64,000 nucleotides of DNA, taken from assembly GCF_963921235.1 (NCBI RefSeq), contig NC_086097.1, forward strand, positions 108,130,001 through 108,194,000, in the 5' to 3' direction. A program made the translations under genes and the position numbers. The first letter of the stretch is position 1, and every line of letters starts with the position of its first letter. Below the pieces are notes generated by a model. That model had not been told where the DNA came from and ran no database searches. It was given only the letters and a program-made list of their open reading frames with translations. This DNA comes from Mobula hypostoma. Taxonomy: Eukaryota. This document shows positions 2,862 to 57,200 of the stretch, piece after piece.

Positions 2862-3357
2862 TAGGGGACTCGATAGTAAGGGGGTCAGATAGGCGATTCT
2901 GTGGACGCAGTCCAGAGACCCGGATGGTAGTTTGCCTCCCTGTGCCAGGGTCCGGGATATTTCTGATCGTGTCCAAGATATCCTGAAGTGGGAGGGTGAG
3001 GAGCCAGAGGTCGTGGTACATATAGGTACCAATGACATAGGTAGGAAAAGGGAAGAGGTCCTGAAAGGAGAATATAGGGAGCTAGGAAGGGAGTTGAGAA
3101 AAAGGACCGCAAAGGTAGTAATCTCGGGATTACTGCCTGTGCCACGCAACAGTGAGAGTAGGAATGCGATGAGGTGGAGGATAAATGGTTGGCTGAGGGA
3201 TTGGAGCAGGGGGCAGGGATTCAAGTTTTTGGATCATTGGGACCTCTTTTGGCGCAGGTGTGACCTGTACAAAAAGGACGGGTTACACTTGAATCCTAGG
3301 GGGACCAATATCCTGGCAGGGAGATTAGCGAGGGCTACTGAGGTGACTTTAAACTAG
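2862..3357 (+). pseudogene. CR1 ORF1 SGNH/GDSL-esterase domain (partial)
   Basis: GDSIVRG...VVVHIGTNDIG...LYKKDGLHLNPRG. Confidence 0.85.
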
Positions 3358-3362
3358 AATGG

Positions 3363-6300
3363 TTGGGGGGTGGGAATCAAATTAAAGAGGCTAGGCGTGA
3401 GGAGGTTAGTTCACAACAGGGGGATGGGAACCAGTGCAGAGAGACAGAGGGGTGTAAAGCGAGGGTAGAAGCAAAAAGTACTAAGGAGAAAAGTAAAAGT
3501 GGCAGGCCGACAAATCCAGGGCAAGCATTAAAAAGGGCCACTTTTCAACATAATTGTATATGGGCTAAGAGAGTTGTAAAAGAGCGCCTGAAGGCTTTGT
3601 GTGTCAATGCAAGGAGCATTCGTAATAAGGTGGATGAATTGAAAGTGCAGATTGTTATTAATGATTATGATGTAGTTGGGATCACAGAGACATGGCTCCA
3701 GGGTGACCAAGGATGGGAGCTCAACGTTCAGGGATATTCAATATTCAGGAGGGATAGACATGAAGGAAGGGGAGGTGGGGTGACGTTGCTGGTTAAAGAA
3801 GAGATTAATGAATAGAAAGGAAGGACATAAGCCGGGAAGATGTGGAATCGATATGGGTAGAGCTGCGTAACACTAAGGGGCAGAAGACGCTGGTGGGAGT
3901 TGTGTACAGGCCACCTAACAGTAGTAGTGAGGTCAGAGATGGTATTAAACAGGAAATTAGAAATGTGTGCAATAAAGGAACAGCAGTTATAATGGGTGAC
4001 TTCAATCTACATGTAGACTGGGTGAACCAAATTGGTAAAGGTGCTGAGGAAGAGGATTTCTTGGAATGTATGCGGGATGGTTTTTTGAACCAACATGTCG
4101 AGGAACCAACTAGAGAGCAGGCTATTCTGGACTGGGTTTTGAGCAATGAGGAAGGGTTAATTAGCAATCTTGTCGTGAGAGGCCCCTTGGGTAAGAGTGA
4201 CCATAATATGGTGGAATTCTTCATTAGGATGGAGAGTGACATAGTTAATTCAGAAACAAAGGTGACTTTGAAGGTATGAGACGTGAATTAGCTAAGATAG
4301 ACTGGCAAATGACACTTAAAGGATTGACGGTGGATATGCAATGGCAAGCATTTAAAGGTTGCATGGATGAACTACAACAATTGTTCATCCCAGTTTGGCA
4401 AAAGAATAAATCAAGGAAGGTAGTGCACCCGTGGCTGACAAGAGAAATTAGGGATAGTATCAATTCCAAAGAAGAAGCATACAAATTAGCCAGAGAAAGT
4501 GGCTCACCTGAGGACTGGGAGAAATTCAGAGTTCAGCAGAGGAGGACAAAGGGCTTAATTAGGAAGGGGAAAAAAGATTATGAGAGAAAACTGGCAGGGA
4601 ACATAAAAACTGACTGTAAAAGCTTTTATAGATATGTAAAAAGGAAAAGACTGGTGAAGACAAATGTAGGTCCCCTACAGACAGAAACAGGTGAATTGAT
4701 TATGGGGAGCAAGGACATGGCAGACCAATTGAATAATTACTTTGGTTCTGTCTTCACTAAGGAGGACATAAATAATCTTCCAGAAATAGTAGGGGACAGA
4801 GGGTCCAGTGAGATGGAGGAACTGAGCGAAATACATGTTAGTAGGGAAGTGGTGTTAGGTAAATTGAAGGGATTGAAGGCAGATAAATCCCCAGGGCCAG
4901 ATGGTCTGCATCCTAGAGTGCTTAAGGAAGTAGCCCAAGAAATAGTGGATGCATTAGTGATAATTTTTCAAAACTCGTTAGATTCTGGACTAGTTCCTGA
5001 GGATTGGAGGGTGGCTAATGTAACCCCATTTTTTAAAAAAGGAGGGAGAGAGAAACCGGGGAATTATAGACCGGTTAGCCTAACGTCGGTGGTGGGGAAA
5101 CTGCTGGAGTCAGTTATCAAAGATGTGATAACAGCACATTTGGAAAGCGGTGAAATCATCGGACAAAGTCAGCATGGATTTGTGAAAGGAAAATCATGTC
5201 TGACGAATCTCATAGAATTTTTTGAGGATGTAACTAGTAGAGTGGATAGGGGAGAACCAGTGGATGTGGTATATTTGGATTTTCAAAAGGCTTTTGACAA
5301 GGTCCCACACAGGAGATTAGTGTGCAAACTTAAAGCACACGGTATTGGGGTTAAGGTATTGATGTGGATGGAGAATTGGTTAGCAGACAGGAAGCAAAGA
5401 GTGGGTATAAACGGGACCTTTTCAGAATGGCAGGCGGTGACTAGTGGGGTACCGCAAGGCTCAGTGCTGGGACCCCAGTTGTTTACAATATATATTAATG
5501 ACTTGGATGAGGGAATTAAATGCAGCATCTCCAAGTTTGCGGATGACACGAAGCTGGGTGGCAGTGTTAGCTGTGAGGAGGATGCTAAGAGAATGCAGAG
5601 TGACTTGGATAGGTTGGATGAGTGGGCAAATTCATGGCAGATGCAATTTAATGTGGATAAATGTGAAGTTATCCACTTTGGTGGCAAAAATAGGAAAACA
5701 GATTATTATCTGAATGGTGGCTGATTAGGAAAAGGGGAGGTGCAACGAGACCTGGGTGTCATTATACACCAGTCATTGAAAGTGGGCATGCAGGTACAGC
5801 AGGCGGTGAAAAAGGCAAATGGTATGCTGGCATTTATAGCGAGAGGATTCGAGTACAGGAGCAGGGAGGTACTACTGCAGTTGTACAAGGCCTTGGTGAG
5901 ACCACACCTGGAGTATTGTGTGCAGTTTTGGTCCCCTAATCTGAGGAAAGACATCCTTGCCATAGAGGGAGTACAAAGAAGGTTCACTAGATTGATTCCT
6001 GGGATGGCAGGACTTTCATATGAAGAAAGACTGGATGAACTGGGCTTGTACTCGTTGGAATTTAGAAGATTGAGGGGGGATCTGATTGAAATGTATAAAA
6101 TCCTAAAGTGATTGGACAGGCTAGATGCAGGAAGATTGTTCCCGATGTTGGGGAAGTCCAGAACAAGGGGCCACAGTTTGAGGATAAAGGGGAAGCCTTT
6201 TAGGACCGAGATTAGGAAAAACTTCTTCACACAGAGAGTGGTGAATCTGTGGAGTTCTCTGCCACAGGAAACAGTTGAGGCCAGTTCATTGGCTATATTT

Positions 6301-47170: not shown

Positions 47171-47487
47171 TACTCTGCCCAACACTCTATCAATTCTCTA
47201 TTAAACCAGCTTGGACAACCTTCCTCACTATACACAACCTGACCAGTTTTCTTGTCATTCACAGACTTACTAATCATACCTCCTACATTCACATCCAAGT
47301 TATTAATGTGTATCAAAAACAGCACTGCTCCCAGCACTGACCCCTGCAGTACACCACTCATCAACTTGATAAATAAATACCAGTGATTAACTCAAAAAAA
47401 GTAGAAGAGCTGAAGAAGACAACTATAGTAATGTTCTTTTTCAAATTTGTGGATATCAATGGCATTTTATTGTACATTCTTTGAGAG

Positions 47488-47550
47488 CCCGATGATTCCA
47501 GGAACATCACTGAAGATGTGTCCAGAAGCATCAATAGATGTATGTACACA
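47488..47550 (+). repeat. 63-bp perfect direct repeat, copy 1 (copy 2 at 51111-51173)
   Basis: cccgatgattccaggaacatcactgaagatgtgtccagaagcatcaatagatgtatgtacaca is identical at both ends of the element. Confidence 0.97.
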
Positions 47551-47758
47551 GCTTACACCCTGAGTTAATCAGTGACAACCAGGAAAGACTGGGTGACAAC
47601 CGCGAAAAGAGTGGTGACAACTGGAGAGTCAGTGACAGCCCGGAGAGACAGCAACCAGGGTAGAACGGGCTGGCAATCCAATCTGCATCCTCTGAGAGGA
47701 GGACCCCCACAAAAGCTACAAAGAATCTAAGGAAAAGATACCCCCGGGGTGCCCGAGA

Positions 47759-50700
47759 GTGGGGGAGGATGAGCACCCCAGTCGGATGGACACAATGACA
47801 TCAGACCCAGGCAATGAACAAATGACGATGAGGAAGCAGTGTGCATGTGGCAAAATCTGCAAGAACGATCGTGGCTTGAAGATCCACCAAGTGAGGATGA
47901 AGTGTTTGGCGGGAGCAGGAGCAGCACAACGCGCAGGTGTCCAGCCTGGTGAGACAAAGGAGGGGCCAGGCCCGGAGTCACCCCATAGTGCCCGGAACCT
48001 CCAAGTGTTGCAAACTAATCCCTCGAACATGAAGTCTAACAGGAGGTGGATCAAATGGTCTGCAGCTAACATGACTTCACTGTGGAAGCAGTTTGATGAC
48101 GATGTTAACCAAATTCTGGAGGCAACGGCGAAGGGAGGGGTTGATAGGAAGCTGCAAGCCAGGACAACAATTATTGTCAGTATCGCAGCTGAACGGTCCG
48201 GAGAAGAGGAGAAGGAAGGCTCCAAAACATCTCACTCGAAGAACCAAAGAGCATCGAGGATTCACAACATCAGGCAGGAGATGAAAGCGCCAAAGTCCCA
48301 ATACTAGGAGGCAGGAGAAGAGGAGCGCATTGGCTTGGCCCAGCTGATGAGCATACTACGAAAGAAGATCAGGGTCCTCCGCTGGACAGAGTGGCATCGG
48401 AGACGGTGTCGTGAAAGGGCCCGAAAACGTGCTGCCTTTATCACCAACCCCTTCAAGTTCACCAAGGGGTTGCTGGGGGAGAAGCGCAGTGGGAAACTGG
48501 CCTGTTCGCACGAAGACATAGACCAACATCTGAAGAAGATATATAATGATCCTGAAAGAGAGCAGGAGTTGGGAGAGTGCGACATCCTAATAGACCCACC
48601 AGAACTGGATGTGCAGTTCGACGTGTCAGAGCTGCAACTAAAGGAAGTCAGAGAGGTCATCTGCAAAGCAAGGGCAAGCTTGGCTCCACGACCAAGCAAT
48701 ACCTCGTACAAAGTGTACAAGAACTGCCCCAAACCCCTGCTGCATCTGTGGAAGATCCTGAGAGTCTTCTGGAGAAGGGGGAAGATCCCAGAACAGTGGA
48801 GAGTGGCTAAAGGGGTGTGGATCTCGAAGAAGGAAAATGCCACCCAGATAGATCAGTTTCGCATCATCTCCCTGCTGTGTGTCGAGGCGAAGATCTTCTT
48901 CAGTGCAGTTTCTAAACGGCTGTGCACCTACCTAGCAAGGAACACCTATATTGATACATCAGTCCAGAAGGGTGGCATTTCAGGGATGCCGGGTTGTCTG
49001 GAGCATATCGGTGTGGTGACACAGCTCATCAGGGAAGCCAGAGAGAACAAGGGCAACCTGTCAGTGTTGTGGCTCGACCCGGCAAATGCATATGGCTCCA
49101 TTCCGCACAAGCTGGTGCAGCTCACACTGACCAAATATCATGTCCCCAGCAGAATCAGAGAGCTTATCGCAGATTATTACAGCAACTTCAGGATGAGGGT
49201 CTCTTCATCAACCTGGCACAAGGTGGAGATGGGCATCATCACAGGGTGCACTATCTCAGTGACACTGTTCTCCCTAGCCATGAACATGCTCATTAAGTCT
49301 GCTGAACCAGAGTGCAGAGGGCCCAGAATGAATTCCGCTCAACGGCAACCACCTATCAGGGCATTCATGGATGACCTCACAGTCACCACAGAATCAGTCC
49401 CAGGCTGCCGGAGGATTCTGCAAGGGCTTGAAAAGCTGGTGGAGTGGGCCCGGATGCGTTTCAAACCTGCCAAATCAAGATCGATGGTGCTGAGGAAAGG
49501 GAAGGTGGAGAACAAGTTCCAGTTCAGCATCGCAGGCACAGCCATCCCAAACATCACAGAAAAGCCAGTCAAGAGCTTAGGCAAAGTTTTTGGCAGCTTT
49601 TAAGGGACACAACATCCATTCAGGCAACCTTCACCGAGTTGGATGGCTGGCTGAAATCTGTGGACAAGTCTGGCCTACCTGGGAAGTTTAAAGCCTGGGT
49701 CTATCAGCATGGCATTCTTCCCAGAATCCTGTGGCCCCTCCTTGTCTATGCAGTTCCGATCTCGACAGTCGAAACCTTAGAGAGGAGGGTTAGCAACCAC
49801 CTCAGGAGATGGCTGGGGCTGCCAAAGAGCCTGAGCAGCATTGCACTCTATGGACACCACAACAAACTGAAACTGCCCTTCAAATCCTTGGAGGAAGAAT
49901 TCAAGGTAATAAGAGCCAGAGAAGTGCTACAGTATAGGGACTCAAGTGACCCGAAGGTGGCTAGAGCAGGGATCCAAGTAAGTACTGGCAGGAAGTGGAG
50001 GGCAGAGGAAGCTGTTCAGGAGGCAGAGGCGAGGCTGCGTCACAGGAGGCTGGTGGGAGTGATCACACAAGGCCGAGCTGGGCTAGGATCCTTTCCAACT
50101 CCCCAGATGGACAACAGAGGGAAGGAAAGGCGTCGTCTAGTTCAGGGGGAGGTGAGAGCAGTAGTGGAGGAGATGAGAGCCTGCAAGGCGGTGGGAATGA
50201 AGCAACAGGGAGCTTGGACAAGATGGGAGAATGTGGTTGAGCGGAAAGTGAGCTGGGCTGATCCATGGAAAGCCGAACCACACCGCATCCAATTTCTCAT
50301 CCAGGCAGTGTATAATGTGCTTCCAAGCCCATCAAACCTGCACACATGGGGCAAGGCAGAGTCATCTGCGTACCCACTGTGCTCCAAGCGAGGAACCCTG
50401 GAGCACATCCTCAGCGGCTGTGCAAGGGCACTTGGTGAGGGACGGTACAGGTGGAGGCATGATCAGGTCCTGAAGACCGTCGCTGAAGCCGTCAGTGCAG
50501 GAGTTGAGTGGGCGAAGCGGTCCCGACCCTCCAAGCAGACCATTGCCTTTCTCAGAGCTGGGGAGCAACCAATACCTGCCAAATGAACATCTGCAGGCAG
50601 TCTGACCTCTGCAAGGGAATGGCAGCTGTTGGTGGACCTCGAAGGGCAGCTGAAGTTCCCCAACCATATCGCAGCCACCACCCTGCGACTAGACATTGTC

Positions 50701-51054
50701 CTAGTGTCTGAGTTGACTAAGCAAGTGGTGCTGTTGGAGCTGACAGCCCCATGGGAAGATAGCTTGGAAGAGGCCTTTGAAAGGAAGCTCTCCAAGTACG
50801 CAGGACTGGTCAGCAACTGTCAGCAGGCTGGATGGAGAGCGAGGTGTCTCCCAGTGGAGGTTGGTTATAGGGGATTCGTAGCCCGTTCTTTAGTTACAGC
50901 CTTCAGCATTTTGAGCATCGAGGGAGAGAGGAAGAGGAGAGTCATCCGCAGTACCACTGATGCGGCAGAGAGGGCCTCAAGATGGCTGTGGCTCAAAAGA
51001 GGGGAGCCATGGAGTCACAAGTATCTAGCCATCTGGACGCAAGCTGGGGTCTGA
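47759..51054 (+). pseudogene. Single ORF (ZnF-RT-RLE) with two premature stops (48305, 50584) and one frameshift (about 49600)
   Basis: ORF pieces 47759-48307 and 48335-49603 share a frame; 49444-50586 and 50629-51054 share another. Confidence 0.9.
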
Positions 51055-51599
51055 TCATCCCCGGCTGGGTCACCTGGAGGAGGTTGTATGATGTTGAAAG
51101 ACCCGAAACACCCGATGATTCCAGGAACATCACTGAAGATGTGTCCAGAAGCATCAATAGATGTATGTACACAACAGCGAGCCATGTTATAGAGAACACT
51201 GTAGAGCACAGGAGCTAGCCCTTAAGTCAATAATGTCCAAGTCAAAAGTGATGCTGATTGAATCTAATTCTCGCTTATCTGAACATTGTCTGTATGCATC
51301 ATTTCCATGTGTGGTCCATATCAGTTATTTCCCTGCACATTCCAGCTACCTGCCACTTGCCTTGTGGATTTCATTTAAACCTTCCCCTTCTCATCTTAAA
51401 CCTATGCTCTCTAGTATAGACTAACTACCTAGCTTGTCTATACCTGTCGTAATTTTATATTCTTCAATCAGGTCGCTCTTCAATCTCCCATGCTCCAAAG
51501 AGAACAATCTAAATTTGCTCAGCCTCTCCCTGTAACTAATGCTCCCTAATCCAAACAGTCTCATAAACCTCTTCTGCAGCCTCGTCAAAGCTTCTATAT

Positions 51600-54287: not shown

Positions 54288-57200
54288 ACCATGGAACCAT
54301 AGAACCATATAGAAACTACAGCACAGAAACAGGCCTTTTGGCCCTTCTTGGCTGTGCTGAACCATTTTCTGCCTAGTCCCACTGACCTGCACACGGACAA
54401 TATCCCTCCATACATCTCCCATCCATGTATCTGTCCAATTTATTCTTAAATGTTAAAAAAGAACCCGCATTTACCACCTCGTCTGGCAGCTCATTCCATG
54501 CTCCCACCACTCTCTGTGTGAAGAAGCCCCCCTAATGTTCCCTTTAAACTTTTCCCCCCTCACCCTTAACCCACGTCCTCTGGTTTTTTTCTCCCCTTGC
54601 CTCAGTGGAAAAAGCCCGCTTGCATTCACTCTATCAATACCCATCATAATTTTATATACCTCTATCAAATCTCCCCTCATTCTTCTATGCTTCAGGGAAT
54701 AAAGTCCTAACCTATTCAACCTTTCTCTGTAACTGAGTTTCTCAAATCCCAGCAACATCCTTGTAAACCTTCTCTGCACTCTTTCAACCTTATTTATATC
54801 CTTCCTGTAATTTGGTGACCAAAACTGAACACAATACTCCAGATTCAGCCTCGCCAATGCCTTATACAACCTCATCATAACATTCCAGCTCTTATACTCA
54901 ATACTTTGATTAATAAAGGCCAATGTACCAAAAGCTCTCTTTACGACCCTATCTACCTGTGACGCCACTTTTAGGGAATTTTGTATCTGTATTCCCAGAT
55001 CCCTCTGTTCTACTGCACTCCTCAGTGCCTTACCATTAACCCTGTATGTTCTACCTTGGTTTGCCCTTCCAACATGCAATACCTCACACTTGTCTGTATT
55101 AAACTCCATCTGCTATTTTTCAGCCCATTTTTCCTGCTGGTCTAAGTCCCTCTGCAGGCTCTGAAAACCTTCCTCACTGTCTACTACACCTTCAATCTTT
55201 GTATCATCAGCAAATTTGCTGATCCAATTTACCACATTATCATCCAGATCATTGATATAGATGACAAATAACAATGGACCCAGCACTGATCCCTGTGGTA
55301 CACCACTAGTCACAGGCCTCCACTTGGAGAAACAATTCTCTACTACCACTCTTTGGCTTCTTCCATTGAGCCAATGTCTAATCCAATTTACCACCTCTCT
55401 ATGTATACCTAGCGACCAAATTTTCCTAACTAACCTCCCATGCGGGACCTTGTCAAAGACCTTACTGAAGTCCATGCAGACAATATCCACTGCCTTCCCT
55501 TCATCCACTTTCCTGGTAACCTCCTCGAAAAACTCCAACAGATTGGTCAAACATGACCTACCACGCACAAAGTCATGTTGACTCTCCCTAATAAGTCCCT
55601 GTCTATCCAAATGCTTGTAGATTCTGTCTCTTAGTACTCCCTCCAATAACTTACCTACTACCGATGTTAAACTTACTGGCCTATAATTTCCCAGACTACT
55701 TTTCGATCCTTTTTTAAACAACGGAACAACATGAGCCACTCTCCAGTCCTCCAGCACCTCACCTGTAGACAGCGACATTTTAAATATTTCTGCCAGGGCT
55801 TCTGCAATTTCAACACTATTCTCCTTCAAGGTCCGAGGGAACACCCTGTCAGGTCCCAGGGATTTATCCACTTTAATTTTCCTCAAGACAGCAAGGACCT
55901 CCTCCTTTTCGATCTGTACAGTTTCCATGATCTCACTACTTGTTTCCCTTAATTCCATAGGCTTCATGCCAGTTTCCTTAGTAAATACAGTCGCAAAAAA
56001 CCTATTTAAGATCTCCCCCATTTCCTTTGGATCAGCACATAGCCGACCACTCTGATCTTCAAGAGGACCAATTTTATCCCTTACAATCCTTTTGCTCTTA
56101 ATATACCTGTAAAAGCTCTTTGGATTATCCTTCACTTTGACTGTCAAGGCAACCTCATGTCTTCTTTTAGCCCTCCTGATTTCTTTCTTAAGTATTTTCT
56201 TGCACTTCTTATACTCCTCAAGCACCTTATTTACTCCCTGCTTCTTATACATGTCATACAACTCCCTCTTCTTCTTTATCAGAGTTGCAATATCCCTTGA
56301 GAACCAAGGTTCCTTATTCCTATTCACTTTGCCTTTAATCCTGACAGGAACATACAACTTCTGCATTCTCAAAATTTCTCCTTTGAAGGCTTCCCACCTA
56401 CCGATCACATCGTTGCCAGAGAACAACCTGTCCCAATCCACGCTTTTTAGATCTTTTCTCATTTCTTCAAATCTGGCCTTCTTCCAGTTAAGAACCTCCA
56501 CCCTAGGACCAGATCTATCCTTGTCCATGATCAAGTTGAAACTAATGGTGTTATGATCACTGGAACCAAAGTGCTCCCCTACACAGACTTCTGTCACTTG
56601 TCCTAACTCGTTTCCTAACAGGAGATCCAATATTGCATCCCCTCTAGTTGGTCCCTCTATATATTGATTTAGAAAACTTTCCTGAACACATTTTACAAAC
56701 TCTAAACCATCTAGACCCCTAACAGTATGGGAGACCCAATCAATATATGGAAAATTAAAATCCCCTACCACCACAACTTTATGTTTCCTGCAGTTGCCTG
56801 CTACCTCTCTGCAGATTTGCTCTTCCAATTCTCGTTGCCTATTGGGTGGTCTGTAATACAATCCCACTAATGTGGCCATACCTTTCCTGTTTCTCAGCTC
56901 CACCCATAAGGACTCAGTAGACAAGCCCTCTAATCTGTCCGGCCTGAGCACTGCTGTAATATTTTCCCTAACAAGCAATGCTACACCCCCCACATTTCAT
57001 TCCTCTGCCTCGATCACATCTGAAACATCGGAACCCTGAAATATTAAGCTGCCAGCCCTGCCTCTCCTGTAGCCAAGTTTCACTAATTGCTATAACATCA
57101 TAATTCCACGTGTCAATCCACGCCCTCAACTCATCCGCCTTCCCCGCAATACTCCTAGCATTGAAATATATACACCTCAGAAGATTTTTACCACCACTCA

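Follow-up and report, generated by a model that had tools for sequence, protein, structure and literature searches.

In a 64,000-nucleotide stretch of the Mobula hypostoma genome (NCBI RefSeq assembly GCF_963921235.1, contig NC_086097.1, positions 108,130,001 to 108,194,000 of the forward strand; hereafter, the window), a retrotransposon with a restriction-like endonuclease (RLE) is preceded by a perfect 63-bp copy of its own 3' end. We report that this repeat is the tail of the element and not a host target, and that the join between tail and head is family-wide rather than specific to the window copy. A hammerhead-like ribozyme core predicted in the tail, overlooked in the preliminary description of this DNA, probably best explains the join. 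We further propose, with belief and doubt about balanced, that the window copy would be one insertion from an RNA circle made by the predicted hammerhead, its first 63 bases representing the start of a second copying round.

As previously described, segments 47488–47550 and 51111–51173 match at 63 of 63 bases, with a spacing of 3623. In a search for the longest exact direct repeats within the window this pair ranks first, the runner-up having 43 nt, and no second copy of the element is present in the 64 kb. The redundancy extends two bases beyond the 63 nt, with a 3-nt indel: the left tail ends in ...TACACAGC and the right one in ...TACACAACAGC, and both endings are frequent at 3' ends of the family in contigs from sequencing runs. 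These contigs, from four public runs, were compared with the element: X1 (organism A), X5 (organism B), X14 (organism D), and X12, which is presumed by guess to be an RNA run and whose join-crossing contig was not used as evidence of transcription.

Among the contig ends listed (there are 2319 further loose ends), 119 in X1, 117 in X5, and 67 in X14 pass from the element into unlike flanks at 51173; a further 55 in X1 exit at 51177. The X1 depth is approximately 6,800 over the head and reaches 484,000 close to the tail, a rise of about 70-fold; read depth over the element does not equal copy number, and the rise is the usual 5'-truncation gradient. The same tail closes a metagenome contig, L001, which starts about 130 nt into the unit, encodes a protein 97% identical to a Limanda protein, and matches the element at 85.5% DNA identity over 3.5 kb without having a terminal repeat. 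Loci L003 and L005 also finish in this tail, and a tail-end motif resembling GATGTATGTACACA recurs in L001, L002, L003, L005, and L010. Of these, L002 is a relative at 45% amino acid identity, and L010, at 26–34%, has an intact open reading frame (ORF) and is filed in a bacterial metagenome-assembled genome, though it is likely eukaryotic; L004, L006–L009, and L011 are partial or uninformative on the tail-head join. The earlier reading of the repeat as element sequence, and not as a long target-site duplication (TSD), thus stands: the 63-mer forms the 3' end of other family copies, it is absent from the left flank in the related organism D, and both junctions occur in independent contigs, which argues against an assembly artefact.

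The preliminary description saw no conventional TSD. We found a 5-bp candidate, GAGCC, on both sides (Table 1), a match expected by chance at about 0.02 for that register freedom. Given GAGCC on both sides, we infer that the composite 47490–51178 is one insertion with a 2-nt microhomology at its 5' junction. The left junction is present in an independent contig (X5 record 25, 47340–47517) that extends 30 nt into the repeat, one letter below our bridging rule of 31 letters on each side of a join; the right one is covered by X1 record 7 (organism A) and X5 record 32 (organism B). X1 has no coverage of the left flank. In organism D, the left flank aligns up to 47489 with 12 differences in 150 and continues with about 680 unlike letters. 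Thus, the insertion is common to organisms A and B and absent from organism D's left flank. Identity of the two 63-mers has a probability of about 0.02–0.15 at 3–1.5% decay per copy; gene conversion is not required for it, and some of the copy's differences may be inherited.

The tail-head join recurs well beyond this copy. We inspected 12 of 29 rows of a back-joint table and 15 of 79 rows of a wider joint table. The former contain three back-joints from 51173, all to 47553 or 47563, with depths of 35.5 and 59.6 in X1, against a single-copy flank depth of 10–12, and 13.6 in X14; no tail-to-internal joint occurs among the rows listed in either table. Nine of the 32 listed pieces, from all four runs, cross 47550/51, and two (X5 record 26 and X14 record 18) have at least 31 letters on both sides. 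The join was found in organisms A, B, and D. In L002 and L010 it appears in circularly permuted units opened mid-ORF, with end overlaps of 25 and 119 nt. This recurrence across copies and organisms bears out the earlier suggestion that reverse transcription ran past the 5' end into a tail.

The preliminary description also suggested looking for variable lengths of 3' untranslated region (UTR) before the 5' ends. Lengths do vary, as tails of 63, 33, and 29 nt were measured, the latter two in X5 pieces; in k-mer contigs a tail length is most easily seen when short. X5 record 26 has 33 nt of tail after 78 unlike letters, X5 record 28 has 29 nt after 12, and X14 record 18 has at least 60 nt of tail before the head. 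The 3' ends of insertions scatter over 47550–47556, a few bases into the head (16 X5 contigs reach 47556), and the join itself is constant. This combination hints at internal initiation of reverse transcription on a continuous template, although alignment slack could inflate the scatter.

The 3' UTR is predicted to form a pseudoknotted structure with a hammerhead core. In the computed fold, TCCAGG at 51120–51125 pairs with CCTGGA at 51073–51078, in agreement with the preliminary description, so that the repeat indeed begins inside a structured UTR. The core elements follow one another as GUA, stem I, GACCC-GAAA-stem III, and stem I-CUGAAGA, i.e., as blocks S-G-C, a rare order. The predicted cut is located 87–90 nt upstream of the 3' end, with the left repeat beginning 22 nt past the corresponding position. 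In the window, stems I and III adjoin the core, whereas the best partner of stem II (GGGUC) is upstream, with two helices between CUGAnGA and stem II. The core of L010 (1182–1249) is complete, with CUA, GAAA, CUGAUGA, a stem III of 7 bp, a stem I of 5 bp, a stem II of 2+5 bp, and an extra 7-bp helix; its block C is uninterrupted, and the core is situated between the stop codon and the head, about 110 nt before the tail motif.

A descriptor of this core matched the UTRs of the window element, L001, L003, and L010, against a background of 0.013 matches per resample of element size and 2 matches among 5000 resamples of UTR size; two matches outside UTRs, on the minus strands of L002 and the window, correspond to the chance rate. 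In the alignment of the four UTRs, 96.6% of 145 cells are paired, compared with 27.7–43.4% when slid, and stem III has two-sided changes at two pairs. Ordinary-order hammerhead and hepatitis delta virus-like folds of the UTR gave no fit by eye. Rfam yielded no family in the element (47200–51400, E up to 10), L001–L003, or L010, and plain folding of the 3' UTR and the head was not significant (z of −1.4 and −2.0), as expected for pseudoknots and short hairpins. A DNA pattern scan for the UTR in genome and viral contigs, as well as a protein scan of the viral contigs, gave zero matches. We found no report of a HERO hammerhead or circle in the literature searched, which comprised titles and abstract starts and covered subscription papers thinly.

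In the proposed mechanism, tail and head would already be connected in the template RNA, most probably in the form of a circle produced via the predicted self-cleaving 3' UTR hammerhead. Transcription of a source locus carrying two ribozyme copies would be followed by hammerhead cleavage about 88 nt upstream of each 3' end and by closure of the unit into a circle. The RLE would nick an unspecific target, and the reverse transcriptase (RT) would start internally at the tail/head join, proceed once round (3623 nt) and 61–63 nt further, and stop 22–24 nt short of the cut position. Joining of the second strand via the 2-nt microhomology would then leave a GAGCC on either side. With an active ribozyme, a linear monomer would start with the tail and end at the cut, so a full-length copy with an intact 3' UTR would need a circle or an incompletely cut multimer. 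The circularly permuted units L002 and L010 are in line with a circle, as are the core bases of L010, all of which are intact; type-SGC hammerheads cleave in vitro (accessible text of PMC10085705).

Several observations weigh against this proposal. Covariation is marginal: there are only four sequences, 19–28 of 500 shuffles equal it, and 28 of 39 pairs are invariant. The U-C mismatch in stem III is common to many copies, as judged from contig ends, and a core G is missing in L005. Block C is interrupted in the window element, L001, and L003, where the stem II partner is not beside CUGAnGA, breaking the rule of the type-SGC model, which takes this block as uninterruptible (PMC10085705, same text). 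The sense strand of L002 has no CTGAnGA, though L002 is a head-to-tail unit. None of the measured redundancies (63, 33, and 29 nt) reaches the 88-nt cut distance, and a linear cut transcript fits them equally well; circular contigs are also produced by genomic tandems. Finally, mutating the hammerhead of an anole Penelope element left its in vitro insertion unaffected, and none of the reads had an end at the cut site (accessible text of PMC11167929).

Linear read-through of a tandem locus would dispense with the circle. Here the 5' end of the RNA, fixed either by the upstream ribozyme or by a promoter within the upstream tail, would lie no more than about 88 nt ahead of the head, the downstream ribozyme would remain uncut, and copies would carry 0–88 nt of tail. 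Such read-through, rather unlikely in our estimate, accounts equally well for the constant join and draws support from the short redundancies. Templates processed by R2 5' ribozymes retain about 28 nt of upstream sequence (accessible text of PMC13580325), and a multi-copy Penelope mRNA has been proposed (PMC11167929, in part). On the other hand, daughters with less than about 150 nt of tail would lose the upstream ribozyme and require a route of tandem regeneration, and circularly permuted units exist in relatives at 45% and 26–34% identity. We assign a smaller likelihood to an R2-type jump from the 5' end of a linear monomer to the 3' end of the same or another RNA, with the UTR fold serving as a protein-binding structure only. 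That the R2 RT jumps end to end between templates was reportedly published by Bibillo and Eickbush in 2004, according to the title; the confinement of the listed back-joints to the head fits it, and L002 has the join without a hammerhead core. Yet the 3' ends of insertions vary, some reaching into the head, whereas the joins look the same in organisms A, B, and D, and a jump leaves unexplained the conserved CUGAnGA, GAAA, and NUH triplet in two differently wired UTRs.

The preliminary description offered self-targeting as an alternative, in which a full-length copy would have landed on the 3' end of a pre-existing short one. Judging from the 70-fold rise in depth, short copies of the tail are highly abundant, and AGC is found at both junctions. 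But full-length copies are far fewer than truncated ones, so that joints from the tail to internal positions would be expected to prevail; none was seen among the rows listed, where tail back-joints land only at the head, and one TSD candidate encloses the whole composite. Self-targeting is accordingly disfavoured, and we consider it very improbable. The identity of the two 63-mers does not discriminate here, since both match the majority sequence, in which only 47534 varies at 15% or more. A long host TSD or an assembly artefact would agree with the fact that no listed contig spans the whole element and with the lack of left-flank cover in X1; with the 63-mer being the family 3' end, organism D's flank lacking it, and left and right junctions both present in organism B, we regard these origins as practically negligible.

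The element itself (Table 1), from its sequence, is a dead copy of a HERO-clade RLE retrotransposon, which upholds its original description as Hero-like. Its single ORF is in four pieces, with stops at 48305 and 50584 and a frameshift near 49600. It comprises an N-terminal Cys/His motif (47846–47887), an RT with FMDD (49364–49375), a CCHC linker that has lost its first Cys, and a PD-(D/E)xK-type endonuclease (50686–50754) in which the Pro of RPD is changed; the order of RT, CCHC, and endonuclease in a single ORF is the HERO-clade layout, here in a broken copy. Pfam detects RVT_1 at E 3e-20 and zf-RVT weakly. The RT piece is identical to proteins of Limanda, Entelurus, and Conger at 85, 84, and 83%, respectively, and to AAN12398.1, BAC82599.1, and BAC82598.1 (Tetraodon, Takifugu) at 62–63%. 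AAN12398.1, presumably the Tetraodon element Zebulon, is 99% identical to BAC82599.1.

HEROFr and HEROTn correspond to AB097130/1 from Takifugu/Tetraodon fish (accessible text of PMC2790886), and BAC82599.1 and BAC82598.1 are presumably their proteins. With this mapping of accessions to names, the element is nearer to the founding HERO proteins (62–63%) than to R2, since solved R2 proteins match it at E 2e-14 or weaker. The same text states that HERO elements lack a Cys-His motif upstream of the RT; contrary to this, the motif is present both here and in AAN12398.1. The published absence likely reflects truncated ORFs, because the shorter BAC proteins begin downstream of the motif. HERO elements are described as having no fixed target (accessible text of PMC3636483), and the 3' flanks here agree at only 0.36–0.45 (10–119 contigs per position in the DNA-like runs), indicating no fixed target.

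Other assignments were rejected. A Penelope-like element would have a GIY-YIG endonuclease, of which the Pfam scan found none, an RLE motif being present instead. A long terminal repeat (LTR) retrotransposon, with LTRs of fixed length and TG...CA ends, disagrees with a repeat that starts with CCCG and varies in length between copies, and the Pfam scan found no integrase or RNase H family. For the R2 clade, which would lie in 28S rDNA and carry a 5' HDV-like ribozyme, Rfam found no ribosomal RNA or ribozyme family in 47200–51400 at E up to 10.

Table 1. Features of the composite insertion and its junctions (window coordinates)
Feature	Position	Strand	Remarks
Left TSD candidate, GAGCC	47485..47489	+	last 2 nt overlap the repeat (microhomology); organism-D flank alignment (X14 record 17) ends at 47489
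5' copy of own tail, 63 nt exact + GC; 5'-truncated second unit, pseudo-LTR	47488..47552	+	
Unit head, three clear TGAC-N-stem-GAAAGA/GAGAGT hairpins (47573, 47594, 47615)	47553..47640	+	
Single broken ORF	47726..51054	+	start placed by alignment to L001
Pseudoknotted 3' UTR with hammerhead core, S-G-C order	51033..51148	+	predicted
Hammerhead parts	GUA 51086–88; predicted cut 51088/89; GAAA 51105–08; CUGAAGA 51133–39	+	
Hammerhead stems	I 51089–93/51128–32; II 51067–71/51100–04; III 51082–87/51108–13	+	one U-C mismatch in III
3' tail copy and element 3' end (...TACACAACAGC)	51111..51178	+	contigs exit at 51173 and 51177
Right TSD candidate, GAGCC	51179..51183	+	

The three hairpin units in the head are the only ones on the plus strand of the 64 kb, and 0 of 500 resamples yield three. 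By plain folding the arrays reach a z of about −1, as short hairpins would be expected to give. Similar hairpins, with different, still-pairing stems, stand directly before the ORF in L002 (two units, 1551–1635) and L010 (three units, 1455–1570). None were found in L008 or L011, and L001 starts downstream of the array. The two-unit pattern matches 46 viral contigs (L012–L057), in none of which this RT is encoded; 19 of 37 distinct viral matches pair at least 4 bp in both stems, compared with 0.22 expected. Several of them adjoin transfer RNAs (tRNAs); in the 20 of 46 phage loci scanned, Rfam matched no family on the hairpins and only tRNA and transfer-messenger RNA nearby. The HERO head array, GAC-N-stem-GAAAGA, has the same form as this uncatalogued tandem phage hairpin near tRNAs.

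The tandem feature is real and family-wide, and in outline it has been known since 2003, when Bouneau et al. reportedly described, by the title of their paper, a Tetraodon element with a tandem structure (Genome Res 13:1686, PMID 12805276). We take this to be the HERO-type element Zebulon, with a partial 3' copy before the element as the tandem; here, many copies have the tail in front of the head. The HERO-clade elements HEROFr, HEROTn, and HERODr of fish resemble the element in the RT piece, in the single RT-CCHC-RLE ORF, and in the lack of a fixed target, but the host here is a ray-like cartilaginous fish. Type-SGC hammerheads, e.g., HRIMA-1 and variants (Eckert et al., 2023; PMC10085705, main text and one supplement), share the S-G-C order, the core, and a short linker between stems I and II. 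L010 fits them with block C intact, whereas the window element has its stem II partner shifted upstream and two additional helices at the junction. In that text and supplement, no such hammerhead was located in the genome of a known organism, and no link to retrotransposons is made.

Penelope-like elements have partial tandem pseudo-LTRs, a hammerhead in the repeat region, and likely internal initiation, which was shown for the anole element (accessible text of PMC11167929). They differ in having a GIY-YIG endonuclease, a telomerase-like RT, and an ordinary-order hammerhead, as opposed to an RLE, a non-LTR RT, and the S-G-C order here. R2 shares the RT with a restriction-like endonuclease, template jumping, and a ribozyme-processed template (for our element, a proposal), but it is distant (best E 2e-14), 28S-specific, and equipped with a 5' ribozyme, compared with many unlike flanks and a 3' hammerhead-like core here.

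New in this work are the relative at 26–34% identity with an intact type-SGC core and the head hairpin array common to distant relatives and phages. The explanation by a ribozyme-made circle is plausible and was not found in the literature searched. More broadly, and with somewhat more doubt than belief, we suggest that HERO and a large unnamed RLE group might be autonomous long interspersed nuclear elements (LINEs) that propagate via ribozyme-made circular RNA, with hammerheads of the non-circularly permuted (S-G-C) kind in two or more wirings, one of them with a split block C, each unit being headed by a GAC-N-stem-GAAAGA array such as phages place before tRNAs and other RNA units.

The tandem structure was already recorded in 2003, but the literature searched offers no mechanism for it; the predicted hammerhead, 88 nt before the 3' end, is directly testable with a 120-nt transcript. 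If it is active, animal genomes would become a known location of type-SGC hammerheads, a core wiring ruled out by the published block model would be added, and an RLE LINE would begin reverse transcription internally on an RNA that is circular or multimeric, in the manner proposed for Penelope elements. If it is inactive, the window copy adds to the dead members of a family known to form tandems. The architecture of the template has practical importance, as RLE elements are being mined as gene-insertion tools.

At fourfold sites, the distance between the window ORF (47726–51054) and L001 is 0.30 (101 of 417 differ). Between rays and teleosts such sites are expected to be near saturation, far above 0.30. 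This low distance suggests, on sequence comparison, horizontal transfer between ray and teleost-type hosts. The 90% cluster of the Limanda protein spans Merluccius, Scomber, Aldrovandia, Nerophis, and others; the main text of PMC7070016 mentions neither Hero nor cartilaginous fish.

Several other observations concern the family and its surroundings. An internally deleted, non-autonomous derivative, in which 48154–48197 is joined to 50819–50874 and about 2.65–2.7 kb are skipped, is present in all four runs. Many whole HERO ORFs occur on contigs of 3.6–3.8 kb, approximately the unit length (P0008, P0013, P0035, P0038, and P0043); one has 3623, the spacing observed here, and these contigs may be collapsed head-to-tail cycles. 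Region 1150–1560 of L002, a head-to-tail unit without CTGAnGA, may contain another processing RNA. The protein family of L010 has 349 matches, of which the best 120, at 45–58% identity, are essentially unnamed and mostly on environmental contigs of 3.5–5 kb; it may be a large undescribed group. Fragments of RLE retrotransposons in bacterial records (L006–L011; Alcanivorax, Flavobacteriaceae, Rhodospirillales, Nitrospirales), including L011 in a 1.5-Mb contig, are likely eukaryotic contamination. Elsewhere in the window, two long, nearly intact copies of a CR1-type ORF2 are located at 2893–5724 and 54471–56996; the second points to a ray-like host, as it shares 94% identity with a protein of Mobula and none of its best 120 matches bears a teleost name.

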